Source of the DNA: a virus
Length of the DNA stretch: 64,000 nt
Virus record (IMG/VR): IMGVR_UViG_3300032287_003622
Span: 1-64,000 of that record
Direction: 5' to 3' (one strand)
The position numbers and the translations under genes were made by a program. Shown here one piece after another: positions 2,496 to 58,752 of the stretch. The notes under the pieces were generated by a model. It searched no databases. It was not told the DNA's origin and saw nothing but the letters and a program-made list of their open reading frames with translations. Numbering within the stretch: the first letter of the stretch is position 1; the number at the start of each line of letters is the position of its first letter.

Positions 2496-3680
2496 ATGCG
2501 AGCACAAGAGCTGGGATCCGGCAAGCTGGTCATATTTGACATTGATGACACCTTAGTCAACACTGACACACGAGTCAACGTGGTGCAGGATGGCCGAGTC
2601 ATCAAGCAGTTGAACAGCCACGACTTTACTCACTACAAACTGGGTCCCGGTGAAACATTTGACTTTGGTGCGTTCAAAGATGCCAGAGAATTTTTTACCA
2701 AGGCTCGACCTATACCTGGCATGATCAAGCAGTTGAAACATGACATAGCCACAGGCAACAGAGTGATCATGCTCACAGCACGTAGTGACTTCAATGACCG
2801 TGATGTGTTCTTGGACACATTCCGACGCTTTGGCATAGACATGGATCAAGTTCACGTATATCGTGCAGGCAATCTTGCCATCAAAGCGGCCACTGAAGAA
2901 AAGAAAAAAATCATTCTCAAGCATTTGTTGGGTAAAGAACACTTTGACAAGCTGATCATGTACGATGACAGTGTACCCAACTTGAATGCCTTCTTGAGCT
3001 TGAAGCAGGATTATCCCTACAGCAAATTTTACGCCTGGCATGTAGATCCAAACGGTCAGGCCACGGAATATCATAGAACCGACGAAGGACAAGTCATGGA
3101 GATCGCACGAATCCCAGTGGGGGATTTTGGTGACAAAGACACCATCATACCCATGCGTGAGCCAAGAAATTCACGCCCCCTGCCTGGCGGCAGTGACTAT
3201 ACCTATGCTGTCAAAAGCACAGCCAACCGCCGAGAAATAACCTTGTTTGATCAGGGCAAGATCATAGCCGAACTGGATCTCATAGACAGCGTGTATCCTG
3301 CCAACACCTGGGAAGTGGCAGCCATTGTGGTGGATCCTGACTATCGTGGACAGGCCCTGGGCTTGGCCTTGTATGGCATAGCACTCAGTGAGTTGAAGCT
3401 GACTCTCCGAGCAGGACGCACACAGACCCGACACGGTCAGGCCATGTGGCTCAAATTGAATCAGATACCCGGAGTAGAAATACGCGGGGTCACCAAGGCA
3501 AGACGCAGTCAATACAAAGAAAAAGCTGGCAATGAAATCCTGGGACAAAACAAACAGTATGTGTGGTACACCTTCCCTGTTACCGCTGGCAGTCGTAGCA
3601 TGCGCAGCGGTCAGCGTGGAGTGGCCCTATACAGCTATGACACACCCAGCACCATGATAGCACAGTGGAGAGGCCAATGA
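2496..3680 (+). CDS. HAD-family phosphatase fused to a GNAT-like acetyltransferase domain
   Basis: FDIDDTL (HAD motif I), LTAR, YDDS; C-terminal VDPDYRGQALG acetyl-CoA-binding motif. Confidence 0.8.
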   Translation: MRAQELGSGKLVIFDIDDTLVNTDTRVNVVQDGRVIKQLNSHDFTHYKLGPGETFDFGAFKDAREFFTKARPIPGMIKQLKHDIATGNRVIMLTARSDFNDRDVFLDTFRRFGIDMDQVHVYRAGNLAIKAATEEKKKIILKHLLGKEHFDKLIMYDDSVPNLNAFLSLKQDYPYSKFYAWHVDPNGQATEYHRTDEGQVMEIARIPVGDFGDKDTIIPMREPRNSRPLPGGSDYTYAVKSTANRREITLFDQGKIIAELDLIDSVYPANTWEVAAIVVDPDYRGQALGLALYGIALSELKLTLRAGRTQTRHGQAMWLKLNQIPGVEIRGVTKARRSQYKEKAGNEILGQNKQYVWYTFPVTAGSRSMRSGQRGVALYSYDTPSTMIAQWRGQ

Positions 3681-38451: not shown

Positions 38452-39350
38452 AGATACTAGTGACCGGTGCCAGCGGCTTGTTGGGCACAGAAATTTGCCG
38501 ACAACTCAAGCAAGAGGAAGGCATAGAAGTATGGGCCGTGGACAATCACAGCCGTAGTTCCACAGTGCCCGACTGTGACAAGTTCTTGGAATTAGATTTG
38601 ACCAACGGTGCTAATTTTGCACAGTTGCCCACGGACTTTGATTATATCTATCATTATGCAGCCATCAACGGCACCAAGAATTTTTATGACCGTCCCAATC
38701 AAGTCATGTGGACCAATATGTGTGCTGATTTTAACATGTTTGAATTTGCTATGTTATGCGGAAAAAATTTACAAAAGTTTGTGTATGCATCTAGCAGTGA
38801 AGTGGTTTCAGATGACCCACAGACACCGGTCAAAGAAAACACAGACATTGTTATAAAAAATATACACAATGCTCGTTGGAGTTACCGATTGCCAAAAATT
38901 TGTAGTGAAAATTTCTTGGTCAACAGCAAGATACCTTATGTGATGTTTCGTTACTTCAACGTATATGGTGACAACTCAAAGGCCGGGCACTTTCTGGCCG
39001 ATCAAATCGCCAAGATTAAATCTGGAGTATTTGACGTTGTTGGACCCGAGGAAACACGCAGTTTTTGCCATGTGGAAGATGCTGTGCGAGCCAGCATACA
39101 TGTTAGTCGTGCGGTGAAAAATGAATTGGTGAACATCGGCAACGATAGAGAAATCACTGTCATGGAGGCTGCACAAACCATTGCCCGTGCCATGGGACAT
39201 ACCGATGCGGTCTGGATCACCACGCCCGGCAAGGCCGGAAGCACTGCTACACGCAGGCCCGATATCTCCAAACTAAAAAGTGTTTTAAAAGACTATCGTC
39301 CCAGGACTTTTGAGCAAGGTGTCCAAGAAATCATTGACAAAATGAAGTGA
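38448..39350 (+). CDS. NAD-dependent sugar epimerase/dehydratase
   Basis: TGASGLLG, ASSSEV, YRLPK, RYFNVYG. Confidence 0.9.
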   Translation: MKILVTGASGLLGTEICRQLKQEEGIEVWAVDNHSRSSTVPDCDKFLELDLTNGANFAQLPTDFDYIYHYAAINGTKNFYDRPNQVMWTNMCADFNMFEFAMLCGKNLQKFVYASSSEVVSDDPQTPVKENTDIVIKNIHNARWSYRLPKICSENFLVNSKIPYVMFRYFNVYGDNSKAGHFLADQIAKIKSGVFDVVGPEETRSFCHVEDAVRASIHVSRAVKNELVNIGNDREITVMEAAQTIARAMGHTDAVWITTPGKAGSTATRRPDISKLKSVLKDYRPRTFEQGVQEIIDKMK

Positions 39351-46654: not shown

Positions 46655-47096
46655 ACCAGTAATAGACAAACAATTTTGGATCTTGCAAGACGGCAATCAA
46701 AAAATTGGTAACATAGAAGCCTGTGCCGGGGGCTACCAAGTTAAAATCCGCAATCAAGTGGCACAGTTCAAGACCATCAAGATGGCGGCCAGAACTGTGA
46801 ATATAGAATTTGAACCGGCTGTGAAAAAATCACAATCAAAACCTAGCACAGATTCGGTACATGGATATCCAGTTGCAGGACGTGTTCATAATCCCATGTG
46901 GGACGTTCCACAACAATTGCCCGTCTACACCAAGACAGCCAAAAGTAAATCGTGGTTCGCAGCCGGTTGGTACAACGTCAAGCGAGGAAGACAGTGGCGG
47001 ACCATACATGCTCCCAAACTGATCATGTTGCAACGCTATCCCTACCAAGGACCTTTCCAATCCGAGCAAGAGGCCAATGACCATACATCTCAATAA
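46638..47096 (+). CDS. Hypothetical phage protein
   Basis: 152 aa; SD AAGGAG. Confidence 0.75.
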   Translation: MKLIAKPVIDKQFWILQDGNQKIGNIEACAGGYQVKIRNQVAQFKTIKMAARTVNIEFEPAVKKSQSKPSTDSVHGYPVAGRVHNPMWDVPQQLPVYTKTAKSKSWFAAGWYNVKRGRQWRTIHAPKLIMLQRYPYQGPFQSEQEANDHTSQ

Positions 47097-47286
47097 ATTT
47101 GTTGATCGTGTGCGGGGTCATGAGTCGCGTGGTGCACGAGACTTTGTGATGAGCATGGCCGATGCCAAGGATCTACATGCGGACATCACACGACTGTTGG
47201 CAGAACTGGTTTCCTTGCGATCACAGCTGGAACAACAACAAGATACGCAGGTCATTACCGTAAAAATGAACGGGGGCAGTTTCTAA
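47077..47286 (+). CDS. Hypothetical protein
   Basis: 69-aa coiled-coil ORF. Confidence 0.65.
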   Translation: MTIHLNKFVDRVRGHESRGARDFVMSMADAKDLHADITRLLAELVSLRSQLEQQQDTQVITVKMNGGSF

Positions 47287-47331
47287 ATCTACATATATTT
47301 TGGCATAAATAACATGTAGGAGTTTAATGCC

Positions 47332-47619
47332 ATGAGCCGACCCAAACCCAGTGTCATAATCGAACACGCCAACAAAAGCACATACAAAACCGAGCAGGTC
47401 CTGGCCAGCGAAGGTGTATGGGCGGTTTTCTATGATTCACGTCCCATCAATCTAAAAACTTCAAATCTCTTGGTGCAATATCCTGGGCCCAAATACAAAA
47501 AAGTAAGTTTCAGCAATCCCGGGCATGCCCGTAACTTGGCCCGCAGACTCAACACACAATTCAAGACCGACAAGTTCACAGTGGTTCTGCTTAAATCGGG
47601 CGATCAGGTCTATCCTTGA
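47332..47619 (+). CDS. Hypothetical phage protein
   Basis: CATAAATA motif and SD AGGAG; GPKYKKVSFSNPGHA. Confidence 0.8.
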   Translation: MSRPKPSVIIEHANKSTYKTEQVLASEGVWAVFYDSRPINLKTSNLLVQYPGPKYKKVSFSNPGHARNLARRLNTQFKTDKFTVVLLKSGDQVYP

Positions 47620-47620
47620 T

Positions 47621-47992
47621 GTGCGAGACAAAAGAAAACTGACCGAACAATTGGTGCGCCAACTGGACCCAGATCTGGGCATAACAGCCAAATTGGCCAT
47701 GCACACCTGGTGGTTCAATATAAGAAAAACTGGAGGCATGCGACTGACCGGCCCAGGTTATCGTGTGTTTACCGAAGAGTTGGATCTGTCCCGTTACGAA
47801 TTTGCCATACCTGACCCACATCAATTCAATCAACACGTGATCCTGGATTTAGATAGGAAAATGCAAATGCCTTACTATATTTCGGCCACCAAAGGCATAC
47901 CCAAAAAAATTGTGTTTTTTGGAAGCAAAGAAGCGGTCATGGTAAACTTATATGGTAATCTCAAACAATTTCTTGACAACTACCGGCCTTGA
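47621..47992 (+). CDS. Hypothetical phage protein (start uncertain)
   Basis: WWFNIRKTGGMRLTGPG; GTG start after the upstream stop. Confidence 0.65.
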   Translation: MRDKRKLTEQLVRQLDPDLGITAKLAMHTWWFNIRKTGGMRLTGPGYRVFTEELDLSRYEFAIPDPHQFNQHVILDLDRKMQMPYYISATKGIPKKIVFFGSKEAVMVNLYGNLKQFLDNYRP

Positions 47993-48001
47993 TGCTATAC
48001 T
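47973..48001 (+). promoter_or_regulatory. Sigma70 promoter for the tRNA
   Basis: TTGACA-17-TATACT, 8 nt upstream of the tRNA. Confidence 0.8.
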
Positions 48002-48009
48002 GTAAATCA

Positions 48010-48097
48010 GGGCCGAACGCCGTATGGTTTGCAGGCACCGGCCTCATAAGCCGGCTCAGAAATGACACTGTGGGTTCAAATCCCTCTCGGCCCACCA
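48010..48097 (+). tRNA. tRNA with CAU anticodon and an atypical long variable arm
   Basis: Acceptor GGGCCGA/UCGGCCC-ACCA; CCGGC-CUCAUAA-GCCGG; UCA-GAAA-UGA extra arm; UUCAAAU T-loop. Confidence 0.85.
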
Positions 48098-48110
48098 AAA
48101 CAAGGTAAAT

Positions 48111-48293
48111 ATGATGACCGTGGAACAGCAAAAGAAGCAGCCAGTAGAAAGTTATTACTACTCCGAAGACGAGTGGAACAGGCTGGGTTGTGGCCCATTG
48201 CCACCCGAACGTGATCGTGCTCGCCAACTTGAAAATGTGGCCGCACGAGGCAATCCTGTCATTGACGGCAAAAACATCAAAGGGTATAATTAA
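48111..48293 (+). CDS. Small hypothetical protein
   Basis: 60 aa; SD AAGG. Confidence 0.55.
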   Translation: MMTVEQQKKQPVESYYYSEDEWNRLGCGPLPPERDRARQLENVAARGNPVIDGKNIKGYN

Positions 48294-48577
48294 CATGTGG
48301 TTGATATTTTTTGCATTCATGGCCATAGTGATTTGCTATGGTATTATGTGGTTGAATGAACATCAGGACGAACAATGAACATATCTAAAAACATTCCCTG
48401 GGCGGCCATTGCGGCCCTGGCAGTATTTGTGGCCATGGGGGTTGTGGCTCACTTGTTTGGTAAATGAAATGAATCAAGATCTCAGTTTTGCCATTGGTGT
48501 AGTTGTGGTAGCTATTGTGTTTTTATTGATTTTATAGTTTCCACGTTTGACCAAACGTGGTGGTAGGACGGGCCCGA

Positions 48578-48606
48578 TTGACAAATAAATAGGTGTGTCG
48601 TATAAT
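48578..48606 (+). promoter_or_regulatory. Sigma70 consensus promoter of the tmRNA
   Basis: TTGACA-17-TATAAT. Confidence 0.85.
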
Positions 48607-48612
48607 ATTAAA

Positions 48613-48867
48613 GAATTGTAGTTTAATGCCTTGACAGAAAGGTGTTGCGGACTCGGGGGCAGTGCCCGACGGGTCCACCATAAGAGCATACTGTGTTTTT
48701 ATGATGGGCCCGACACAGTTTCGACGTGGCAACAAGTATGAACAGGATCTACACAGTAGGCGATGACTGTAAATCAAGCAAACCTAAATAACCGCTAATG
48801 ATGAGTTATTTCTAGCAGCCGCTTGATCGGTATGCGTGAGCAACTATGCTTAGAAACAGAAAATAGC
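48613..48867 (+). ncRNA. ssrA: Circularly permuted two-piece tmRNA; tag ANDELFLAAA
   Basis: Acceptor piece ends CGGGUCC-ACCA at 48680; coding piece starts GGGCCCG at 48706 giving the G3-U70 pair; tag frame 48794-48826; outer ends approximate. Confidence 0.9.
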
Positions 48868-48891
48868 AATAGGGCCTTCGGGCCCTATTTT
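48868..48891 (+). terminator. Rho-independent terminator
   Basis: AATAGGGCC-TTCG-GGCCCTATT followed by T residues. Confidence 0.9.
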
Positions 48892-49023
48892 GTTGACCAT
48901 AATAGACTCAGTTTACTCTAAATACCCGCAAAACCCCTGTAATTTTTGTTGGCCGTCAGTGAAAACCACTAAATAACTTGTTGGGTGTTCACCCAGCATT
49001 CTTTTAAAAGGAAAATCTCAAGC

Positions 49024-49764
49024 ATGAAAAAATTATTATTAGCATTGGCCTTGTCCGCTGGCTTTGTTGCCTCGGCTCAAGCTCAACTCACCGGCAATTT
49101 AGGTTTGACCAGCGACTACCGTTTCCGCGGTGTTAGCCAAACCCAAAATGCTCCTGCAGTTCAGGGCGGCATCGACTATGCACACAAGAGTGGCTTCTAC
49201 GTTGGTAACTGGAACAGCTCGGTCTCTAGCCAAGTCTACACCGCAGGTGCAGGTTTAGAAAGTGACTTGTATGCTGGTTACAAGAAAGAAATCTTCAAGG
49301 GCATCAGCATTGACGTTGGTAGCTACAACTATTTCTATCCACGTGCAACCACTTCAGCACGGACTGGTTCAAACTTTGACACCTATGAAGCCTATGTTGG
49401 TTTATCACATGGCGACCATATCAGTGCCAAGTATAGCAGAGTCCTAGGCGATGGCTATTTTGGTACAGCCAATGCTCAAGGCACAACCTACATGCAAGCC
49501 GATGGCAAGTTGCCAGTTCCTGTAATCAAGAACCTAGCAGTTGTAGCTCATTATGGTCGTACCAATGTGGCCAACAGTTCAACCTTGGATTACAATGACA
49601 TCAATGCTGGTATTGTTTACAGTCTACCCAAAGATTTTGATTTAAGTGTCAAGTATTTTACCAATACTGGCACCACAAGAACTTTTGAAACTGCAAACAC
49701 TGTGAGCGGTCAAAAACTCTACAAGAATGCAGTGGTAGTGGGCTTGACAAAAACTTTTAATTAA
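49024..49764 (+). CDS. Outer-membrane beta-barrel, TorF/TIGR02001-like putative porin
   Basis: Signal peptide; SDYRFRGVSQT..PAVQGGIDY; terminal TKTFN. Confidence 0.88.
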   Translation: MKKLLLALALSAGFVASAQAQLTGNLGLTSDYRFRGVSQTQNAPAVQGGIDYAHKSGFYVGNWNSSVSSQVYTAGAGLESDLYAGYKKEIFKGISIDVGSYNYFYPRATTSARTGSNFDTYEAYVGLSHGDHISAKYSRVLGDGYFGTANAQGTTYMQADGKLPVPVIKNLAVVAHYGRTNVANSSTLDYNDINAGIVYSLPKDFDLSVKYFTNTGTTRTFETANTVSGQKLYKNAVVVGLTKTFN

Positions 49765-49779
49765 TTTTAAAAGTAATCC

Positions 49780-49812
49780 AAAAAAAAAAGCTCCTCCGGG
49801 AGCTTTTTTTTT
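49780..49812. terminator. Bidirectional intrinsic terminator
   Basis: A-tract, GCTCC-TCCG-GGAGC hairpin, T-tract. Confidence 0.88.
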
Positions 49813-49824
49813 GGTAAGTAATCC

Positions 49825-51303
49825 ATGTGCGGCATATTACTGGTCAAAAGTCGATCGAACATTCCCTTAGAAAAACATCTGTCAACTTTTGTGAAATTAC
49901 AAAGCCGTGGCCCAGATTTCTGCAGATATCAATACCAAAACAACACGTTCATTGGACATGCTGTGTTACACATAACTGGCTCCGCTGATTATTATCACAC
50001 CCAACACCAAAACTTCTTGGCCTACAACGGTGAGATATACAATTACAAGGAATTTGGTCCCTGGGAGACCGACACCGCTTTTGTTCATCATGCAGTGGAA
50101 CACGACCTTGATCTGCTAAAAGAAGCCTGGGGTCCCTGGGCCTGGGCATGGACAGATGGTGACGTTGTGCGGTATGCCACAGACCCGCAGGGCGAGCGTG
50201 CCCTGTATCAATATCAAGACGATGACATCTTGATAGTGTGTAGCGAAATAGCACCCATACTTGAATATATCAATTCAGCCAAGGCAGATGTTCCATATGT
50301 CAACAAGACTTGGACCATGCTGGACCGCACACCCTGGCAAGGTATCACCAAAATCACTCCTGGCCTATTGTATCTGGACGGACAAGCCACCTACCAGATC
50401 GACAGCATATGGTCTTGGGTGGCCGAACCATTACATCATACACTGGACGAAGCCTATGAAGATTTCGAGTCACGTTGGCGGCAGGTCATCAAGCAGATGA
50501 CTCCAAACTGCCCAGCGGCTTTGACCTATTCTGGTGGCTTGGACAGCTCGGTTATCCTGAGTCACCTGCCCGGACTTGATCTCTATTCGATCAACTGCGT
50601 GGGCAAGGATCCCATAGTAGATCAAATAAATGAATTTTTACATCCCGAAGAACAGGCAAGGTTACACGTGACTGCGCTGTCAGAATCGCAATGGGCTGAT
50701 GAAATGTCGCAAATGATGGCACGGACCTGCATGCCACCCTTGAGCTGGAGTTGGGTAGGGCAGTGGACGGTCACACGTCACTGCCAACAGCGAGTATTGT
50801 TTACCGGAGCTGGAGCCGACGAACTGTTTGGAGGGTATGACGTGTACAGGAATATTGACTACAGCACAACCAGTTGTTCCAGTCCCTACAGCCGGTATAC
50901 AGATCCTGAAACCTGGCAACGGTGTCTGTCAGTGTATGACAATGACCCTGTGCAGGCCACCTTGCTCATGGACTACTGGCATCAGATCGTGGGCTGTGAT
51001 GCACGGGCTGTAGATCTAATCGCGGGTGCATGGGGTATTGAACCCAGGAATCCATTTTTGGCCAAGCCCATCATGCAGTTGGCTTTGAACTTGCCCAGCC
51101 GTTTCAAGGTGACTTCCGAATCCAAACCTTTGATACGCAGGTTATTTTTGCAACGCTGGACCCTTGATCACATATTACCAAAAAAAGGATTCACTGGGCA
51201 TGCCAATGATTCAGCAACTTGGCTGGCAACAGACATCAAGCCATCTGGCGATCGCATGGTTGATTGGCAAAAAATCGTGAGACAATGTTTTTATGCAAGC
51301 TAA
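49825..51303 (+). CDS. Asparagine synthetase B-like glutamine amidotransferase
   Basis: MCGI Ntn start, RGPD, YNGEIYN, SGGLDSS, TGAGADELFGGY, RNPFL. Confidence 0.92.
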   Translation: MCGILLVKSRSNIPLEKHLSTFVKLQSRGPDFCRYQYQNNTFIGHAVLHITGSADYYHTQHQNFLAYNGEIYNYKEFGPWETDTAFVHHAVEHDLDLLKEAWGPWAWAWTDGDVVRYATDPQGERALYQYQDDDILIVCSEIAPILEYINSAKADVPYVNKTWTMLDRTPWQGITKITPGLLYLDGQATYQIDSIWSWVAEPLHHTLDEAYEDFESRWRQVIKQMTPNCPAALTYSGGLDSSVILSHLPGLDLYSINCVGKDPIVDQINEFLHPEEQARLHVTALSESQWADEMSQMMARTCMPPLSWSWVGQWTVTRHCQQRVLFTGAGADELFGGYDVYRNIDYSTTSCSSPYSRYTDPETWQRCLSVYDNDPVQATLLMDYWHQIVGCDARAVDLIAGAWGIEPRNPFLAKPIMQLALNLPSRFKVTSESKPLIRRLFLQRWTLDHILPKKGFTGHANDSATWLATDIKPSGDRMVDWQKIVRQCFYAS

Positions 51304-51862
51304 CAAGATTGACCAACCTTGGACACACTGGATAGCCGATGACTTCCTGACTCCATCCTGTTTGGCTGAAGTCAAAGGCATACAGCATACAGTGACTCAG
51401 ACCATTCCCGGCAAGCGCCGTGACAGCCAACGATTGTTTGTGGACCATGATGTGGCTGATCAGTATCCAGAGTTGTATGCCCTGTATCTGAGTTTGCATT
51501 CGGGCACCTATAGAGATTTTTTTGAAAGACACACAGGGATCAGCTATCAAGGCCTGCATCCCAGAATAGAAGTCATCAGTGATTGGGGAGATTTTTATCT
51601 AGAACCACACTATGACCTACCAGAAAAACGACTCACGGCTTTGGTCTACACCGACCATGAGATTCTGTATCCAGGCACTGGTCTGGGCGACGGCACACGG
51701 ATTGAAAGCCGAGACAATCGCTGTTTCTTTTTTGTGCCAGGGCCACACAGTCTTCATGATTATCCACTGACTCATTTTGATCGTGTGCGCAGATGTCTAC
51801 AGATCAACTATTGGACTTATAATCTGCCCAAGGACGCAAAATATCAAACCACTCTGGTGTAA
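51293..51862 (+). CDS. 2OG-Fe(II) oxygenase
   Basis: PHYD (HxD), distal His in SLHD, RRCLQINYW. Confidence 0.8.
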   Translation: MQANKIDQPWTHWIADDFLTPSCLAEVKGIQHTVTQTIPGKRRDSQRLFVDHDVADQYPELYALYLSLHSGTYRDFFERHTGISYQGLHPRIEVISDWGDFYLEPHYDLPEKRLTALVYTDHEILYPGTGLGDGTRIESRDNRCFFFVPGPHSLHDYPLTHFDRVRRCLQINYWTYNLPKDAKYQTTLV

Positions 51863-52508
51863 AAACACAAGCTGGATGTTGTTGTAGCCAACCCTGCATG
51901 GCGTCAACACACCAAGGCTCGCCGGGAGTCACTGCAGAAGTCTTGGCACTGTTGTATTCATACCAAAATATGCCATAGGGTGCAGAAGGATCTGTCAGAG
52001 TGAACAAGAACTGTTGGCCAACCACGGCACCACACAAGGTAGCAAACTGATCAAACGAAGTTACTGGCACTAGATGATCAAATCTATTCTTGTGCTGACA
52101 GCCAGTGCTGACAAAGGCTCGCACTGTTTGTATGGCAGGTATGCGTTCAAGAGCACGCAGGCGACTTTCACCATTGTTGATTCCATACTGATCCTGGCCA
52201 TCATAGAACAACATCATAGGTTTGACAATTCCTTGTGTTTGTATGTCAGCGATCCACATGTTGAGTTTGACTATGTTGGCAATGTCATAATGATTGGCGG
52301 TGTTTGCTATGAAACCTTGATGTCCATGAGTCTTTATTTGTCGATTGGCCCAGTCGCAGATGTCCTGCAAGGTCTGTTGATATCGTATCTGATCAACTGG
52401 CACCTCTGGATCGTAATATAGACAGTGGGCTCCATCGTGCAAGCTCTGCACTATGGGATCCTGATCCGTGGGCCAAAGGCATTCTATCCTGGGATTATTC
52501 CAATACAT
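51804..52508 (-). CDS. Hypothetical protein with a ParB/Srx-like motif
   Basis: GIVKPMML..NNGESRLRAL. Confidence 0.6.
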   Translation of the reverse strand: MYWNNPRIECLWPTDQDPIVQSLHDGAHCLYYDPEVPVDQIRYQQTLQDICDWANRQIKTHGHQGFIANTANHYDIANIVKLNMWIADIQTQGIVKPMMLFYDGQDQYGINNGESRLRALERIPAIQTVRAFVSTGCQHKNRFDHLVPVTSFDQFATLCGAVVGQQFLFTLTDPSAPYGIFWYEYNSAKTSAVTPGEPWCVDAMQGWLQQHPACVFTPEWFDILRPWADYKSNS

Positions 52509-52524
52509 ATAAGTAGTTATTCAC

Positions 52525-53502
52525 ATGACAGCTTCCAAAGAAAAAACACACACCGATGGCATTTGGATTTCTGAGCAAAGAGAGATTGCTATAATCGATC
52601 AATTCTGTAAAGTTATTTTGGCCAAGGGTTTTGTTCCTATACGTCAAAATGCCAATAATTTTGGACGTCCTTATCTGTATTCACAAGGCAAGACCTTCCT
52701 GCATTGTAGATTTGTAGACAGTGTGTTCCTGGAAGATCCAGAGGCCTGGCACCGTCCCAGACCCAGTATTATTATCACCGACAATATTCCTACAAAACCT
52801 ATGTCATCTGACTTGATTTTGGCATTGCCAGAATTTTGGCACATTTGGCATTTTGATCCGGTGTTTGAAGATCGTCCAGCCACCTGGAGCTATAATTGTT
52901 TTATGAATCGTTGCCGTGGTGATCGTTCACGCACATTTTATGAACTGATCCGCAGAGATATCCTGCAACATGGACTGGTCAGTTACAATGTAGACAATGA
53001 ATTATATCAACAACAACACATTTCAGCGGATCTACACAACTACGAAAAAGAATATCAAATAGGTCAAACTCTGATACCTTACAACAACCTAAAGGGATCA
53101 CTGGAACAGTGTGTGATTGATTCGGCGGTGAGCTTGATTTTAGAAACTTATACCAGCGACGATCACATAGTGTTCAGTGAAAAATTGTTCAGATGTCTGC
53201 AATTGCCAAGACCCTGGTTGTTGTATTGCGGTCCCGGTGCCGTTGAACAACTCAGAGTTTATGGATTTGATGTGTTGGACAATTATGTAGATCACAGTTA
53301 TGATCGTGTTAAACCTCACGGACATAGACTAAATGCAATAATCAATCACTTAGAAACTTTTATAAACAAAAAATATACCGAGAGTGATTATGATAGGTTT
53401 CGTAGGGCCGCTCAGCATAATCGATCTCAATTAAAAAAATTTGCATCAGCATGGCCAGCGAAATTTCAAAACATTTTAGATAAATTAAATCAATATGCTT
53501 GA
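52525..53502 (+). CDS. Glycosyltransferase-like hypothetical protein
   Basis: YNCFMNR, LILET, FSEKLFR, GFDVLDNYVDHSYD. Confidence 0.6.
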   Translation: MTASKEKTHTDGIWISEQREIAIIDQFCKVILAKGFVPIRQNANNFGRPYLYSQGKTFLHCRFVDSVFLEDPEAWHRPRPSIIITDNIPTKPMSSDLILALPEFWHIWHFDPVFEDRPATWSYNCFMNRCRGDRSRTFYELIRRDILQHGLVSYNVDNELYQQQHISADLHNYEKEYQIGQTLIPYNNLKGSLEQCVIDSAVSLILETYTSDDHIVFSEKLFRCLQLPRPWLLYCGPGAVEQLRVYGFDVLDNYVDHSYDRVKPHGHRLNAIINHLETFINKKYTESDYDRFRRAAQHNRSQLKKFASAWPAKFQNILDKLNQYA

Positions 53503-54526
53503 AATATTTGGACCTACCTACAAATACCAGGGCGAAATCCTGTCTGAGCCAGAAATCATTTTCATCGAAGATCATCACTATGACGAACAAAATCATTGTT
53601 TCCAGGTGCAACAACTTTTGGAAAACAGTGCTTGTGATCCGCGCCTGCATTTGATAATCGTGGGAGGTCTTGGACACGATGATGTGCTTGATCAATATCG
53701 TTGTGTTAGTTTGCCTTATTTCACAGCCGGAACTTGCGAACAGTTCAATCGCGGAAACATCATACCTGATTGGACACAAAAAACACATTGTTTCAATTTC
53801 ATGATCAACAAACCGCGTCTGCACCGAAGGTTTTTGCTAATGTTGCTACAGCATTTTGAACTAGACAACTATACCTATTGTTTGCCCTGGAAAAATTTAG
53901 ATCTCAATCCCAGGGAACTGATGGGCCGAACATCAAATGCAGAATATCAGTCTATCATTACACAAAATCCAAAATTCAACCGATCTGGGACCAATTATGC
54001 TTTTGGCAATGAGGCCACCTTAGACCAAGGAATAAAAAATGGCAGCTGGAAGAACGCCCAAACCTACAATCAATTTTTGAAATCACAGGTGTTTGAGCCC
54101 AGTTGTGTGAGCCTGATCACTGGCAGTTTGTTTTATGAACGTGAAACCAGGATTTCCGAGACCACACTCATGGCCATGTATGCTGGCACCATACCAATCT
54201 GGGTGGGTGGATGGCGGGCGGCACAAAGGTTGAAAGATCTGGGATTTGATGTGTTTGATGACCTTGTTGATCACAGTTACCAAGACATGCCAGACCCAAT
54301 GGATAGATGTTACTTTGCCATAAAAAACAATTTGAAAATCTTGCAGGATTTCGAAGGCACCAAAAAATTTGTGGATCAAAATCATGCAAGACTACAAAAG
54401 AATTTGGATTTGTGCAAGAACAACGTTTTTTTAAAACACATAGGAGATCAAGTATCAAAATTGCCTGGCAATCTACAACCCATTGTAAAAACCTTTGTAA
54501 ATCAACAAGTAATGGGGTTGACCTAG
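53495..54526 (+). CDS. Glycosyltransferase-like hypothetical protein (paralog)
   Basis: FNFMINKPRLHR, GFDVFDDLVDHSYQ. Confidence 0.6.
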   Translation: MLEIFGPTYKYQGEILSEPEIIFIEDHHYDEQNHCFQVQQLLENSACDPRLHLIIVGGLGHDDVLDQYRCVSLPYFTAGTCEQFNRGNIIPDWTQKTHCFNFMINKPRLHRRFLLMLLQHFELDNYTYCLPWKNLDLNPRELMGRTSNAEYQSIITQNPKFNRSGTNYAFGNEATLDQGIKNGSWKNAQTYNQFLKSQVFEPSCVSLITGSLFYERETRISETTLMAMYAGTIPIWVGGWRAAQRLKDLGFDVFDDLVDHSYQDMPDPMDRCYFAIKNNLKILQDFEGTKKFVDQNHARLQKNLDLCKNNVFLKHIGDQVSKLPGNLQPIVKTFVNQQVMGLT

Positions 54527-54546
54527 TATAAATAATTGTATATAAT
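54518..54546 (+). promoter_or_regulatory. Dual promoter: sigma70 with an embedded T4-type late box
   Basis: TTGACC-17-TATAAT; TATAAATA at 54527-54534. Confidence 0.8.
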
Positions 54547-54555
54547 AACACTATT

Positions 54556-54657
54556 ATGTTGAATCACAAATTATCCTATCTTGTGCCACAACCCAATTTT
54601 GAAGGGAGTGCCGTGCTATGGGCGATTTGTGAAGATGGGATTCGAGGTAACGAATAG
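54556..54657 (+). CDS. Putative attenuator leader peptide MLNHKLSYLVPQPNFEGSAVLWAICEDGIRGNE
   Basis: 33 codons, near-leaderless start, 19 of 20 amino acids; 3' end overlaps the antiterminator strand. Confidence 0.7.
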   Translation: MLNHKLSYLVPQPNFEGSAVLWAICEDGIRGNE

Positions 54658-54720
54658 TATAACACACTATACAAAAATATTCGAAACCTCGGAACTATAA
54701 ACTCCGAGGTTTTTTATTTT
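54641..54720 (+). terminator. Mutually exclusive antiterminator / intrinsic terminator (attenuator)
   Basis: Antiterminator pairs 54641-54661 with 54668-54693; terminator AAACCTCGGA/TCCGAGGTTT plus T-tract shares 54686-54693. Confidence 0.85.
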
Positions 54721-54735
54721 AGAGAAAGGAATGTG

Positions 54736-54909
54736 ATGTCGATTGATTATACAAAATTAAACGATCAAGTTGTTAAACAGGCCTATGATGCCAGCAGTGC
54801 TTTTTTGACTGAAGCACAACGGCAGAGACTGTTTCAGAACAAGATCGATCGTGCGGCCGCAATGATACGGGCGCAGGAACAGTTTCGTCAGTTAGAGCAA
54901 GAACAGTGA
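54736..54909 (+). CDS. Small helical hypothetical protein (57 aa; not in the ORF track)
   Basis: SD AAAGGA; MSIDYTKLNDQVVKQAY...QFRQLEQEQ. Confidence 0.65.
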   Translation: MSIDYTKLNDQVVKQAYDASSAFLTEAQRQRLFQNKIDRAAAMIRAQEQFRQLEQEQ

Positions 54910-54915
54910 AACAAT

Positions 54916-54989
54916 CGCGGGTTGTGATAGTCATACTCTGGTCTCATAAGCCAAGATGGAATAGGGAGCGTTACCCTAGCCCGCAACCA
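54916..54989 (+). tRNA. Degenerate initiator-like tRNA (CAU)
   Basis: CGCGGGU/GCCCGCA-ACCA with C1xA72; CUCAUAA loop; shrunken D-arm; T-loop AGCGUUA. Confidence 0.7.
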
Positions 54990-54995
54990 TGTCAC

Positions 54996-55073
54996 AGTGA
55001 GGTGGCCGAGTGGTCCAAGGCAAGTGCCTGCAAAGCATTCAAGTCGTGAGTTCGAATCTCACCCTCACTTCCA
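54996..55073 (+). tRNA. tRNA-Cys (GCA)
   Basis: AGUGAGG/CCUCACU, U73, CCA; CUGCAAA loop; UUCGAAU T-loop. Confidence 0.93.
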
Positions 55074-55075
55074 AG

Positions 55076-55152
55076 TCCGGAGTAGTTCCAATTGGCAGAA
55101 CAGCGGTCTCCAAATCCGCGTGTTGGCGGTTCGAATCCGTCCTCCGGTGCCA
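55076..55152 (+). tRNA. tRNA-Trp (CCA)
   Basis: CUCCAAA loop, G73, CCA end, UUCGAAU T-loop. Confidence 0.9.
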
Positions 55153-55180
55153 ATTTATTTAGAAAAGAAAGGAGGCACGT

Positions 55181-55771
55181 ATGCCAGCAGTATTTTTAGT
55201 CAGCGACACACACTTTGGCCACGCAGGTGTATGTCGCTTTAAGCGCAACGATGGTGTTACAAAATTGCGGCCTTGGGACACAGCCGAGGAAATGGATGAG
55301 TTCATGGTTGCAGCATGGAACGAGCGTGTAAGGCCAAACGACAAAGTTTATCACTTGGGTGATGTTGTTATGAGCCGTAAAAGTCTTGCTATCATGCGCA
55401 GGCTCAACGGTGACAAGGTTCTTATCCGTGGCAATCATGATATCTTCAAGGACACTGACTATCGTGAACACTTCCGTGAACTGCGTGCTTATCATGTGAT
55501 GAATGGCATGATACTCAGTCATATCCCTATCCACTCAGAAAGTCTGGGTCGGTTTGGCACGAATATTCATGGTCACTTGCACGCCAACCGGGTGATGTTG
55601 CCCGGATTCAATGGCAAGGTCACTGACATTGTTGATGTTCGTTACCACTGTGTTTGTGTGGAACAAACCGACTTTGCTCCTATCCTGTTTGAAGATGTGA
55701 TCAAGAGGATTGAAGCAGAAGGTGGCCAAATCGGTTTTCAAAACGGCAATGGCACTACGCAAGCCATGTAA
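55181..55771 (+). CDS. Calcineurin-like metallophosphoesterase
   Basis: SDTHFGH, HLGD, GNHD, LSH, HGHLH. Confidence 0.92.
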   Translation: MPAVFLVSDTHFGHAGVCRFKRNDGVTKLRPWDTAEEMDEFMVAAWNERVRPNDKVYHLGDVVMSRKSLAIMRRLNGDKVLIRGNHDIFKDTDYREHFRELRAYHVMNGMILSHIPIHSESLGRFGTNIHGHLHANRVMLPGFNGKVTDIVDVRYHCVCVEQTDFAPILFEDVIKRIEAEGGQIGFQNGNGTTQAM

Positions 55772-55776
55772 GGACG

Positions 55777-55854
55777 ACCCCTGTAGACAAATTGGTAAAG
55801 TCACCTGTTTAAGGAACAGGAGCATTGTAGGTTCAAATCCTACCAGGGGCACCA
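55777..55854 (+). tRNA. tRNA-Leu (AAG) with a short variable loop
   Basis: CCUGU-UUAAGGA-ACAGG; A1xC72; UUCAAAU T-loop; ACCA end. Confidence 0.82.
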
Positions 55855-55883
55855 TTGACATCCAGTGAGTTTTATAGTATAAT
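55855..55883 (+). promoter_or_regulatory. Sigma70 consensus promoter
   Basis: TTGACA-17-TATAAT. Confidence 0.85.
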
Positions 55884-55905
55884 TAACATTTTACAAGGAG
55901 AGGTT

Positions 55906-56127
55906 ATGAGTGTTAGAATTGAAAGTCGTAGCACCGAAATTGACACCGAACGCTGTGTGCGCAATGCCGGCGGTCGCTATGATCTAGTTGTGGCAGCAGC
56001 TCAACGCCTGAGAGAAATGAAACGTCGTGCCCGTGAAACCAACACTCATGTGACCACCATTGATGCACTCAAAGAAGTTGAATCTGGCACTTTTAATATG
56101 ACAGACTATTTGATAAAGATAAAATAA
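55906..56127 (+). CDS. rpoZ: RNA polymerase omega subunit-like protein
   Basis: CVRNAGGRYDLVVAAAQRLRE..ALKEVESG; SD AAGGAG. Confidence 0.72.
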   Translation: MSVRIESRSTEIDTERCVRNAGGRYDLVVAAAQRLREMKRRARETNTHVTTIDALKEVESGTFNMTDYLIKIK

Positions 56128-56283
56128 ATGAAAAAGCAATCAGCAGGTGAACTCAGTAGAACCATTGCAGGACAATGGTCAAAAAGTGAAAAGCGGTCGG
56201 CTGCATCTCGCAGTATCACAGCTGCCAACAAGCGAATACATCAGATTCTCAAAACATTTGCTCAAAAACAAAGAATGCAGTAA
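56128..56283 (+). CDS. Small basic hypothetical protein (51 aa)
   Basis: MKKQSAGELSRTIAGQW..., directly after the upstream stop. Confidence 0.55.
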   Translation: MKKQSAGELSRTIAGQWSKSEKRSAASRSITAANKRIHQILKTFAQKQRMQ

Positions 56284-56292
56284 CAGTGGTAT

Positions 56293-56367
56293 GCACCGTT
56301 CGTCTATCGGTTAGGACACCCGCCTTTCACGCAGGTAAGAGCGGTTCGATTCCGCTACGGTGTACCA
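56293..56367 (+). tRNA. tRNA-Glu (UUC)
   Basis: GCACCGU/ACGGUGU-ACCA; CUUUCAC loop. Confidence 0.92.
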
Positions 56368-56424
56368 AATATTTTGTAGAGCAGTCACGCAAAATAAGTA
56401 AACATATCAATTAGGATCACAAAC

Positions 56425-56640
56425 ATGGCAAAAAAACTACAGCGCAAAAAACCTGGCTACACCCGTGCCGGCGAAGTCAAGATCATCAGTCTCAGCGTGC
56501 GACAGCTCACTGAGTTAAAAGCAAAAACACAGGCCACAAAAAAACAGGTCAAGATACAGCGCAGGATTGACTTGCTGAAACGTCGTCCCGGATATCGCGA
56601 GCCAGTGGTTGAGGCAACACCCGACGCCCTCGTCGCATAG
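56425..56640 (+). CDS. Small basic hypothetical protein
   Basis: K/R-rich 71 aa; last 15 nt overlap the tRNA. Confidence 0.6.
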   Translation: MAKKLQRKKPGYTRAGEVKIISLSVRQLTELKAKTQATKKQVKIQRRIDLLKRRPGYREPVVEATPDALVA

Positions 56641-56709
56641 TGGGATTGCAACGGATTTGTAATCCGTCGAGGAAACTCAAAGGGTGTTCGATTCACCCCG
56701 GGGGCACCA
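56626..56709 (+). tRNA. tRNA-Thr (UGU) with an atypical long variable arm
   Basis: GCCCUCG/CGGGGGC-ACCA; ACGGA-UUUGUAA-UCCGU; GAG-GAAA-CUC arm. Confidence 0.85.
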
Positions 56710-56725
56710 CACAAAGGAGAATTTA

Positions 56726-56890
56726 ATGAGTAAAATGAGCGATCTACTTAAGAAGGCCTTGGACAAGAAGCGAGGTATCCATCACATTGAAAATGAAGAT
56801 GCACCAGTGGTGGAAAAGAAAACCGCCAAACAGCGAGCACCCGTGATAGGCAAAAAACCACCTACCAGATCGGCCGGTCGAGGCCGATAA
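56726..56890 (+). CDS. Small basic hypothetical protein
   Basis: SD AAGGAG; ends RSAGRGR. Confidence 0.6.
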   Translation: MSKMSDLLKKALDKKRGIHHIENEDAPVVEKKTAKQRAPVIGKKPPTRSAGRGR

Positions 56891-57594
56891 TGCGTTCAAT
56901 CAAGGAAATAAAAAAAGACAGTAAACCAATCGTATTTTTAGGTAGCTGTCACAATATCCAAAATTTGGTAGAACTGTGTAATTCAAGTGGTAGAGAAGTG
57001 ATTGGGTTGATAGATCCTGATTATGATTCTCAAAAAGAATTTTATGGACTGCCTGTCCTGCAAAAAAAACCCTACATCAACGAGCCCGAAAAATATGAAT
57101 TTTTCGTGGCCACATGGTGGACACCTTTTCAAAATAACGTTCATCGGCGCAATCTCAAAAAACGCAGATTGTTTTTGGCCTGGATGGAATCATACAAATT
57201 TACAGGTGCCACAGTAATTCACGATACTGCTGTGATCAGTCCCAAGGCCATGATTGACTCGCATGTCAGTGTGGGTGCGTTGTCAATACTCGTGCAAAAT
57301 TGCCAAATACACAAACATACCAATATAAGAGAACAATGTTATGTGAGTCATGATGTTGTTGTTGACTCTAACTGTGTGCTACAGATGAAGTCCACTGTGA
57401 CCGGAAGTATCACTGTTGGTTCCAACACCTACATAGGCCCTGGAGCAACTGTGGTCAATGGCAGTCCATTAAATCCCATGCACATAGGCAACAACGTTAT
57501 AATACATCCAAATCAGCTGGTTTTAGAATCAGTCGCAGATAACACCATTGTAAGCTACAAAAAAGCTCCGTTCGTGGTGACGGTTGACCAATAA
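56890..57594 (+). CDS. Hexapeptide-repeat acetyltransferase (NeuD/PglD-like)
   Basis: VIHDTAVIS, VSHD, VGSNTYIGPGATV. Confidence 0.8.
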   Translation: MRSIKEIKKDSKPIVFLGSCHNIQNLVELCNSSGREVIGLIDPDYDSQKEFYGLPVLQKKPYINEPEKYEFFVATWWTPFQNNVHRRNLKKRRLFLAWMESYKFTGATVIHDTAVISPKAMIDSHVSVGALSILVQNCQIHKHTNIREQCYVSHDVVVDSNCVLQMKSTVTGSITVGSNTYIGPGATVVNGSPLNPMHIGNNVIIHPNQLVLESVADNTIVSYKKAPFVVTVDQ

Positions 57595-57612
57595 TCCAAT
57601 TTGTTGTATAAT
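57584..57612 (+). promoter_or_regulatory. Early sigma70 promoter
   Basis: TTGACC-17-TATAAT; similar to the promoter at 62522. Confidence 0.8.
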
Positions 57613-57666
57613 AGTCCTATAGTAGTAAATTGTTATCAACCTAAATAACTTACAAAGGACACAGCC

Positions 57667-58752
57667 ATGTCAGACACAAGAACAGTAACCTCAGTGCAGG
57701 CCCGCAAGAGCTTGCTCAAAGCATTTTCGAAAAAACGCCCACTCTTTTTGTGGGGTCCTCCTGGTATCGGTAAAAGTGAATTGGTAGCCGATATTGCCCA
57801 AGAACTTGGTGGCCACATGATCGACCTCCGACTTGGTCAGATGGAGCCCACTGATATCCGTGGTATTCCGTTTTACAACAAAGATTCAGGCAAAATGGAC
57901 TGGGCTGAACCGGTAGACTTGCCAACTGCGGAATTTGCCAGCCAGTATCCTATCGTGGTGCTATTCTTGGACGAGATGAATTCAGCGGCTCCGTCGGTAC
58001 AGGCCGCGGCCTATCAGTTGATCCTTAATCGTCGCTGTGGCAAATACTTTTTGCCCGACAATGTGGTGTTAGTTGCTGCCGGTAATCGCGAAAGCGACAA
58101 AGGTGTTACATATAGAATGCCCACGCCCTTGGCCAATCGTTTCATACACCAAGAAATGCGTGTGGACTTTGCCAGTTACCAGGAATGGGCAGTCAACAAC
58201 AACATCCATAAAGACGTGGTGGGTTATTTGAGTTTTGCCAAGCAAGATCTCTATGACTTTGATCCCAAATCAGCTTCGCGTGCCTTTGCTACACCAAGGT
58301 CATGGACATTCGTCAGCCAGATTCTTGAAGACGAAGACGGCGATGATGACACTATCATGAACCTGATTGCTGGCACTGTGGGTGAAGGACTTGCTGTGAA
58401 GTTCATGGCACATCGCAAGATTGCTGGCAAGATGCCCAAACCTGAAGATATCTTGAGTGGCAAGGAAAAAGATCTCAATGTCAAAGAAGTATCGGCTATG
58501 TATTCTCTGGTCATTGGCATGTGCTACGAGCTCAAGGGTGCCATTGAAAAGAAGGTGCCAGACAAGCAGTTTCATGAAATGGCCGACCATTTCTTCAAGT
58601 ACATGATGCAGAACTTTGAGACTGAGCTTGTGGTCATGGGTGCCCGTATTGCACTAACCACCTACAACTTACCGTTCCAGCCTACCAAGCTCAAGAACTT
58701 TGATGAGTTCCACAACCGCTACGGCAAGTATATCCTGCAAGCTTCGGCCTAG
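57667..58752 (+). CDS. MoxR-like AAA+ ATPase
   Basis: Walker A GPPGIGKS, Walker B LFLDE, AAGNR, LANRF, TPRSW. Confidence 0.92.
   Translation: MSDTRTVTSVQARKSLLKAFSKKRPLFLWGPPGIGKSELVADIAQELGGHMIDLRLGQMEPTDIRGIPFYNKDSGKMDWAEPVDLPTAEFASQYPIVVLFLDEMNSAAPSVQAAAYQLILNRRCGKYFLPDNVVLVAAGNRESDKGVTYRMPTPLANRFIHQEMRVDFASYQEWAVNNNIHKDVVGYLSFAKQDLYDFDPKSASRAFATPRSWTFVSQILEDEDGDDDTIMNLIAGTVGEGLAVKFMAHRKIAGKMPKPEDILSGKEKDLNVKEVSAMYSLVIGMCYELKGAIEKKVPDKQFHEMADHFFKYMMQNFETELVVMGARIALTTYNLPFQPTKLKNFDEFHNRYGKYILQASA

Follow-up and report, generated by a model that had tools for sequence, protein, structure and literature searches.

The region 54518–54720 of a 64,000-nucleotide stretch of viral DNA (the window) is likely to be a ribosome-mediated transcription attenuator that senses decoding by the very tRNAs it controls. 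The window comprises the first 64 kb of the 134.9-kb IMG/VR virus record IMGVR_UViG_3300032287_003622, the completeness of which has been estimated at 39%, and a giant phage is therefore implied. The element is composed of a promoter, a short leader open reading frame (ORF), and two competing RNA helices, an antiterminator and an intrinsic terminator, and it would gate an operon that contains the small gene p58, tRNA genes, and a gene for a phosphoesterase. Judged computationally from its organization and conservation, it probably restricts the production of tRNAs by this giant lake phage to times when their supply to the ribosomes is short. An earlier note on the window had proposed a codon-sampling attenuator that gates the tRNA genes by responding to almost any amino acid. 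The anatomy, the conservation, and the covariation of the element uphold the attenuator; by contrast, the pan-amino-acid sensing is replaced by a correspondence between the leader and the tRNA array. At the level of sequence, the conserved property is that the codons of the leader mirror the downstream tRNAs, lineage by lineage.

The element and the genes downstream of it are located on the plus strand. The sigma-70-type promoter TTGACC-17-TATAAT (54518–54546; −35 box 54518–54523, −10 box 54541–54546) scored 11 of 12 matches in a promoter scan. The ATG at 54556, 9 nt past the −10 box, starts a leader ORF of 33 codons, MLNHKLSYLVPQPNFEGSAVLWAICEDGIRGNE, which ends with a TAG stop (ORF 54556–54657, stop 54655–54657). 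The promoter, the spacing, and the ORF can all be read directly from the DNA, as the earlier note had described them. The last five codons of the leader together with the stop codon constitute the 5′ arm of the antiterminator hairpin (54641–54693), which consists of UUCGAGGU/ACCUCGGA, CGAAUA/UAUUCG, and GUAUA/UAUAC and has a folding energy of −17.5 kcal/mol. The inner stem GAAUA/UAUUC of the hairpin takes in the final sense codon and reaches two bases into the stop codon. The 3′ arm of the antiterminator includes the 5′ strand of the terminator (54684–54720), in which AAACCUCGGA pairs with UCCGAGGUUU ahead of a T-run (AAACCTCGGA-loop-TCCGAGGTTT; 13 pairs, −13.5 kcal/mol). The terminator hairpin itself spans 54684–54712 and is followed by T6-A-T4. 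The strand ACCUCGGA is common to both helices, and folding confirmed the claim that the hairpin and the terminator are mutually exclusive. In the window, the pairing of the terminator 5′ strand with the end of the ORF amounts to −9.7 kcal/mol, compared with −2.1 kcal/mol in 200 dinucleotide shuffles (z −4.55; 0/200), and the complete leader fold is also stabler than shuffles (z −3.34).

Relatives of the element were collected in three ways. The metallophosphoesterase encoded downstream, used as a query, identified at least 597 related viral stretches, 80 of which were kept. The cassette was recognized in these relatives at first by eye and then by its promoter pattern, which gave a close set of at least 28 distinct sequences, the window included, so that the size of the family is a lower bound. 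The filter of this set demanded the promoter, the ATG, an ORF of 24–40 codons, W-x(2-3)-C, and a T-run; therefore, counts of 28/28 for these features are partly built in. A profile search with nhmmer over 204 loci added five more distant members, all of them equipped with an ORF, an antiterminator, and a terminator, resulting in 33 homologues. A further set was defined by a pattern that contains only the loop and the 3′ stem of the terminator; it recovered 78 stretches, 62 of them distinct and 61 analysable, after one stretch that is truncated upstream and L227, which has too little upstream sequence, had been left out. The survey of related phages that the earlier note had called for did find a short ORF with an antiterminator and terminator pair ahead of tRNA genes. 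For the terminator-ascertained set, 14 lineage representatives at a loose threshold of 45%, or 20 at 60% identity, were drawn from those 31 of its 61 elements that have three or more tRNAs and no less than 2 kb of downstream sequence.

The correspondence between leader and array was evaluated tRNA by tRNA: a downstream tRNA counted as matched if it could read at least one codon of the leader under simple wobble rules; every plus-strand tRNA within ~3.5 kb was counted as part of the array. In the 28 close elements, 114 of 130 tRNAs have a cognate codon in the leader, compared with 72.9±5.4 for random ORF windows. A set of 14 representatives has a match of 71/80, against 46.3±4.2 for random ORF windows and 64.8±2.7 when leaders and arrays are permuted among loci (P 0.014), and with Trp, Cys, and Met disregarded the match is 44/50 against 33.1±3.1 (permutation P 0.017). 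The five distant members, which were held out, match at 34/37. The 20 lineages of the terminator-ascertained set reach 183/197, compared with 128.8±5.4 for ORF windows drawn from the locus of each lineage and 163.1±4.6 under permutation of leaders and arrays (0 of 4000 as high), and the match is still 178/197 when the last five codons of the leaders are dropped. At the level of amino acids, 178 of 182 downstream tRNA species in this set are represented in their own leader. Conversely, in 50/54 cases in which a leader lacks a residue, the array behind it lacks the corresponding tRNA as well (pooled odds ratio 13).

Individual loci illustrate the correspondence. Neither Trp nor Cys occurs in leaders of the MLNLNLNLLGTTGNAAEDTLRG type, and tRNAs for these two residues are likewise missing from the arrays behind them (Gly, Glu, Ala, Leu, Ile, Asp, Asn, and Thr). 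The leader MMNRNANTFIVIPSTPRWCGCFCGST precedes tRNAs for Trp, Pro, Cys, Met, Thr, Ser, and Gly, all seven of which are matched. The leader of L234 contains only nine amino acids; it matches nine of ten downstream tRNAs, which carry eight amino acids. All three tRNAs of the predicted transcription unit in the window are matched: Cys(GCA) by TGT, Trp(CCA) by TGG, and Leu(AAG) by CTT. Behind the next promoter, tRNA-Glu(UUC) is matched by GAA in the leader, and tRNA-Thr(UGU) follows further on; Thr is the sole residue that the leader does not contain. The candidate control codons in the window are TGG (54619–54621) and TGT (54628–54630), located 36 and 27 nt before the stop codon and followed by GAA, GAT, and GGG.

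The earlier note had emphasized the diversity of the leader in the window, and its description of the composition is accurate: 19 of 20 amino acids are present with Thr absent, the four Leu codons TTG, TTA, CTT, and CTA all differ, and Ser, Pro, and Ala use two codons each. Compared with null models, the number of amino acids departs mildly from expectation (P 0.019 for random peptides with the composition of the window, P 0.012 for real 33-residue windows); by contrast, the 27 distinct codons among 33 do not (null 23.6±2.2, P 0.08). The 28 close homologues contain 14–19 distinct amino acids, and the absent residues vary. Pan-amino-acid sampling was therefore rejected as a conserved design. 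The wider family extends from 20 amino acids, all of which are present in 5 of the 20 lineage representatives, to the nine found in one of them. On average, the leaders are more diverse than random peptides (mean z +0.92).

A dedicated sensor of Trp and Cys was considered as well. Trp and Cys are the only invariant rare residues in the close subgroup of the window (28 sequences), and both are present in 33/33 close and distant leaders, 28 of which had been pre-filtered for W-x(2-3)-C; a random 33-residue window holds both with P 0.19. Genes for tRNA-Trp and tRNA-Cys are the commonest downstream, in 17/18 and 15/18 of the close-set loci with at least 2.5 kb of downstream sequence, and those for Glu, Met, and Gly are next. 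The idea of a Trp/Cys sensor holds in the close subgroup; however, it fails as a rule for the family, because the terminator-ascertained set includes leaders without Trp and/or Cys. It was therefore replaced by the array-matched reading.

The antiterminator is retained throughout the family. It is part of the minimum-energy fold of the segment from the ATG to the terminator 5′ strand in 27/28 close members (all but L140; mean z −2.75) and in 17/18 wider-family representatives (all but L234; mean z −3.6). Counted from the stop codon, the partner of the terminator 5′ strand occupies positions −17 to 0 nt, and the ORF ends 31–40 nt before the terminator pattern in all 61 terminator-ascertained members. 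Close members have terminators with T-runs in 28/28 cases, with energies of −10.5 to −17.6 kcal/mol, 25–33 nt past the stop codon. The covariation that the earlier note had proposed to look for is present in both helices. In the alignment of 33 sequences, 73.8% of the antiterminator cells are paired, compared with at most 53.6% when the strands are slid; 27 cells have changed on both sides, compared with 11.0±3.7 in shuffles (0/500 as high), and the covariation score is 0.166 against 0.131 (1/500 shuffles). The corresponding values for the terminator are 94.7% of cells paired and 12 double changes against 1.9±1.3. An example of a compensatory change is CGAGG/CCUCG of the window, which corresponds to CAGGG/CCCUG in L101. 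In addition, the ORF body forms a long hairpin of its own, and the 5′ portion of the ORF is able to pair with the antiterminator arm. This pairing is a possible 1:2 (pause or anti-antiterminator) helix, the partner strand of which is not conserved in detail.

The terminator loop (54694–54702; consensus CUAAACAC) and stem are far better conserved than the leader ORF in divergent members. The conservation of the loop exceeds what would be expected of a plain terminator, and it could reflect contact with a protein or RNA, or the spread of a mobile regulatory cassette.

The leader ORF looks translated, judging from how it has diverged. It is open in 28/28 close, 5/5 distant, and 61/61 terminator-ascertained members; homologues that keep the terminator and lose the ORF, which the earlier note had named as evidence against its reading, are not among the last set. 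The other two frames carry stops in all 27 within-group pairs compared, and base differences in these pairs are distributed as 118, 143, and 203 over codon positions 1, 2, and 3. Cys is encoded by TGT 20 times and by TGC 15 times across the 33 homologues. Between lineages the leader peptides can barely be aligned, whereas the RNA switch is shared, as is its placement with respect to the stop codon. Searches of Pfam and PHROGs identified no family for the leader peptide.

The promoter, including the motif ATAAATA in its spacer, is kept in all 28 aligned close sequences, and a TTGAC-type promoter is located 0–11 nt before the ATG in 57/61 terminator-ascertained members. The distance from the −10 box to the ATG is 6–10 nt in 28/28 close members, and the 9 nt of the window predict a 5′ untranslated region of 0–3 nt. 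This distance is too short to accommodate a Shine-Dalgarno sequence, so that a leaderless or nearly leaderless mRNA is predicted. In the distant member L120, the 5′ leader is longer and includes a purine-rich stretch ahead of the ATG. Between 47000 and 60000 of the window there are five other near-consensus plus-strand promoters, two of which lie directly before a tRNA-Met gene and the gene for transfer-messenger RNA (tmRNA); therefore, the phage clearly uses host-type promoters. In L023, a separate intrinsic terminator at 3570–3592 is positioned immediately 5′ of the −35 box of the cassette, and the cassette therefore begins its own transcription unit there.

Two further promoters of the window have start codons in a similar position. 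At 39334, TTGACA-17-TATAAT is followed by the ATG of a long ORF (MKKIYHTWQDV...) 5 nt past the −10 box, which suggests a wider use of leaderless mRNAs by the phage. Between the tRNA-Met and tmRNA genes, TTGACG-17-TATAAT lies 4 nt ahead of a hydrophobic ORF of 27 codons, MWLIFFAFMAIVICYGIMWLNEHQDEQ (48262–48378), which may be a second leaderless mini-ORF.

We infer where transcription starts and that the leader is translated, as well as the kinetics, direction, and physiological trigger of the switch, and the following sequence of events is proposed. The host RNA polymerase would start at the consensus promoter, the transcript would begin at or just before the AUG, and the 33-codon leader would be translated. 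A ribosome that quickly reached the stop codon would cover or unwind the 5′ arm of the antiterminator, so that the terminator would form and transcription would end before p58. If a tRNA for one of the leader codons were short, the ribosome would be delayed upstream, the end of the ORF would pair with the terminator 5′ strand, and the polymerase would read through into p58, the tRNA genes, and the phosphoesterase gene. The footprint of a ribosome held at TGG or TGT would leave the arm, which starts at about −16 nt, free, and that of a ribosome at the stop codon would cover it. The leader holds codons read by the tRNAs of the array, and the products of the operon would therefore relieve the stall, which would constitute negative feedback. 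The triggers suggested previously, host tRNAs that are uncharged or have been cleaved by anticodon nucleases, are plausible candidates.

Several observations weigh against this interpretation. The mirroring is inexact: a cognate tRNA within 3.6 kb exists for no more than 215 of 504 leader codons (43%), and in the window for no more than 6 of 32; stalls at codons without a cognate in the array would trigger read-through too. When the last eight codons are removed and Trp, Cys, and Met are excluded, the match in the close set falls to 34/50, compared with 28.5±3.3 (P 0.06). The arrays were delimited without regard to operon boundaries, internal promoters occur, and in several relatives a further strong promoter separates some of the tRNA genes from the element. 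The loci are kin, so all P values given here overstate independence. The leader of the window has no tandem runs of control codons but one TGG and one TGT, and leaders hold mostly single codons of many kinds, which, unlike the tandem runs of classical attenuators, leave the sensitivity of the switch uncertain. The full-length minimum-energy fold forms the terminator in 27/28 close members, and the antiterminator, at a mean of −15.5 kcal/mol, is only slightly stabler than the terminator at −13.7 kcal/mol; the choice between the two would therefore have to be kinetic, as in classical attenuators. The leader in the window has no Shine-Dalgarno sequence, and its initiation would need to be leaderless or nearly so. 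Finally, the pN/pS ratio of 0.47 among close homologues of the leader leaves room for some function of the peptide itself.

The most serious alternative, although an unlikely one, is that the element is an attenuator of general translation status, which reports only the relative pace of ribosome and polymerase and the codon content of which has no designed relation to the tRNAs. Such a device would respond to a global slowdown, to inhibitors that target the ribosome, or to failed initiation, and it is close to the any-codon logic of the earlier note. The geometry of the element would permit it, as the antiterminator arm is freed by a ribosome held up at nearly any codon that precedes about −25 nt, and it would account for the 57% of leader codons without a cognate tRNA within 3.6 kb as well as for the above-random diversity of the leaders (mean z +0.92), 5/20 of which hold all 20 amino acids. 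However, an attenuator indifferent to codon identity does not predict that the match of 183 should exceed both the permuted value of 163.1±4.6 (0/4000) and the 128.8±5.4 of own-locus windows, nor that a residue absent from the leader should go together with an absent tRNA in 50/54 cases. It is also at odds with L234, where a leader of nine amino acids still matches 9/10 downstream tRNAs.

Two further explanations were considered. It is improbable that the leader is an independent gene for a small protein with its own promoter and terminator, the genes downstream being expressed by leaky read-through or from other promoters. The maintenance of the ORF with a pN/pS of 0.47, the strength of the terminators, and the second promoter before the tRNA genes of some relatives are in line with such a gene; yet the peptides, for which neither Pfam nor PHROGs provided a family, can barely be aligned between lineages that preserve the switch and its position relative to the stop codon. 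Compensatory changes keep a helix that competes with the terminator, the next Shine-Dalgarno sequence or tRNA follows directly past the T-run without a promoter of its own, and the agreement between leader codons and tRNAs would be left unexplained. Least probable is a non-coding RNA, whether a small RNA, a riboswitch-like element, or a tRNA-binding analogue of the T-box, in which the open frame is incidental. A promoter, ~160 nt, and a terminator are the layout of a small-RNA gene, the fold is stabler than shuffles (z −3.34), and the terminator loop is unusually conserved. Nevertheless, the frame is open in the 33 close and distant and the 61 terminator-ascertained members despite strong divergence, and the third-position bias and the alternation of TGT and TGC indicate coding; the purine-rich stretch ahead of the ATG in the longer 5′ leader of L120 also counts against this reading. 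A search of 47000–58000 with Rfam models at E ≤ 1 detected no T-box and nothing at all at 54518–54720.

The first gene past the terminator, p58 (54733–54909), has a Shine-Dalgarno sequence, AAAGGA, that starts 5 nt past the T-run, and the promoter scan detected no other strong plus-strand promoter between the element and 55855. The segment from the leader to tRNA-Leu(AAG) is therefore predicted to be one unit, which contains the leader, p58, a degenerate tRNA-Met, tRNA-Cys, tRNA-Trp, the Metallophos protein, and tRNA-Leu(AAG). No reliable family for p58 was found in Pfam, PHROGs, or the protein atlas; a homologue of it is located directly downstream of the element in 18/28 close elements. In the wider family, the first tRNA gene lies within 300 nt of the terminator pattern in 23/61 members and within 600 nt in 46/61.

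The earlier note had listed p58, tRNAs for Met, Cys, Trp, and Leu(AAG), and a phosphoesterase in this unit, and all of these were recovered with the exception of tRNA-Met. Neither ARAGORN nor the Rfam tRNA model (E ≤ 1) calls a tRNA there. Alignment to the tRNA-Met genes of L204, L167, L127, and L101, which have an intact gene at the same place just before tRNA-Cys, identifies 54916–54989 as a degenerate copy of an initiator-like tRNA-Met(CAU), with C1 opposite A72, the anticodon loop CUCAUAA, the 3′ end CCCGCAACCA, and a degraded D arm and T loop. It is followed by tRNA-Cys(GCA) (54996–55073) and tRNA-Trp(CCA) (55076–55152), both called by ARAGORN and scored at 60 and 47.5 bits by the Rfam tRNA model. 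The calcineurin-like metallophosphoesterase (55181–55771) was assigned from PF00149 (E 5.6e-5), phrog_547 (E 4.1e-48), and the structure of a hypothetical protein (PDB 1xm7, E 6.5e-8). The gene for tRNA-Leu(AAG) (55777–55854; ARAGORN, Rfam) closes the unit, and a new consensus promoter follows at 55855.

In most of the 80 kept viral stretches, the phrog_547 phosphoesterase gene sits among tRNA genes, which are present on one or both of its flanks; the enzyme could heal tRNA ends or process tRNAs. Unusual anticodons recur in the arrays: Leu(AAG), Ser(ACU), Phe(AAA), Ile(UAU), and Lys(CUU). In L032, ARAGORN assigns the label Pyl to one tRNA whose anticodon is CUA and which may be an amber suppressor. 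Behind the promoter at 55855–55883, inside the tRNA region of the window, a 73-residue ORF (55906–56124) has a borderline match to RNA polymerase Rpb6/omega (PF01192, E 1.2e-5, 25.6 bits against a cut-off of 26). The tmRNA (48564–48917) is of the betaproteobacterial type (Rfam RF01850, 125.5 bits) with the tag ANDELFLAAA, which hints at a betaproteobacterial host, and its gene has its own perfect promoter, TTGACA-17-TATAAT (48578–48606).

A search of the 134.9-kb genome fragment revealed no second copy of the element, and blastn of 54300–55900 against GenBank phages returned only matches of the size of tRNA-Trp. No RNA run was listed as containing this stretch. A 1059-nt contig of a relative, from run X20, which is guessed to be RNA, spans the terminator and p58 and continues into the phosphoesterase gene; no inference is drawn from it, since DNA may be present in the library and the ends of transcripts cannot be read from contigs.

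Leader-peptide attenuators are known from amino-acid operons, for example trpL, hisL, leuL, and pheL, and there are multivalent leaders such as those of thrL and ilvGMEDA. The element of the window resembles attenuators of the trp and his type in its short promoter-proximal ORF and its mutually exclusive antiterminator and intrinsic-terminator helices, in the masking of the antiterminator by a ribosome that would reach the stop codon, in the position of the control codons upstream of that arm, and in that the product of the regulated genes would relieve the stall. Unlike in those systems, the cargo consists of phage tRNA genes instead of biosynthetic enzymes, the leader has no Shine-Dalgarno sequence and would be leaderless or nearly so, and decoding capacity would be sensed for many codons, each single or nearly so, instead of for runs. 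The pheM leader attenuates pheST, and the leaders of erm and vmlR are antibiotic-responsive ribosome-mediated attenuators. In these, too, stalling on a short leader decides about read-through into genes for translation or resistance; however, they sense a single amino acid, tRNA, or drug, have a cargo other than tRNA, and are not known to be encoded by phages. The element also differs from T-box riboswitches in that it has no covariance-model match at E ≤ 1.

Two published systems share individual aspects of the proposal. In the polycysteine ORFs reported from mycobacteria, a leaderless short ORF is likewise the first cistron of an operon, and codon-specific pausing of ribosomes is reported to control the genes downstream by acting on access to the ribosome-binding site (10.1101/834739, Canestrari et al.). 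By contrast, the output here would be an intrinsic terminator, the codons are diverse with mostly a single Cys, and the cargo is tRNA. The long tRNA array of Anabaena sp. PCC 7120 is described as supernumerary, horizontally spread, silent by default, and induced by impaired translation (PMC8421152, Santamaria-Gomez et al. 2021), which is the same physiological logic as that proposed here. Unlike the element of the window, that array is bacterial, and the main text of the report contains 0 occurrences of "attenuat", "leader peptide", or "terminator" and thus describes no switch of the leader-peptide kind.

Phage tRNAs are usually discussed as constitutive helpers that adjust codon usage or as replacements for host tRNAs destroyed by defense systems. 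Full-text literature searches, which covered few subscription journals and no supplements, revealed no account of attenuation by a leader peptide for tRNA genes, whether of phages or of other origin. The element would represent a known type of control, leader-peptide attenuation, with a new cargo and with a multi-codon leader matched to the array.

A broader hypothesis, which is put forward tentatively and may well prove wrong, is that giant freshwater phages use the cassette as a homeostat of the tRNA pool, in which each block of tRNA genes would lie behind a leaderless test ORF with about one codon per tRNA species of that block. When any of the matching host tRNAs was scarce, uncharged, or cleaved, the ribosome would stall, the antiterminator would open, and exactly the replacement tRNAs would be switched on. 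The initiator tRNA would be sensed through leaderless initiation, and the metallophosphoesterase would be co-induced. The rising supply of phage tRNAs would then shut the operon off, and the inputs of the sensor would evolve together with its cargo.

The cassette of ~200 nt, with its sigma-70 promoter and intrinsic terminator, should be testable in a reporter. If the array-matched attenuator is real, tRNA genes themselves can be under classic attenuation control, many codon-specific signals can be integrated by one short ORF, and sensor and cargo co-evolve. The finding would bear on when and why phages need their own tRNAs, and it suggests that the cassette is a compact natural sensor of decoding capacity.

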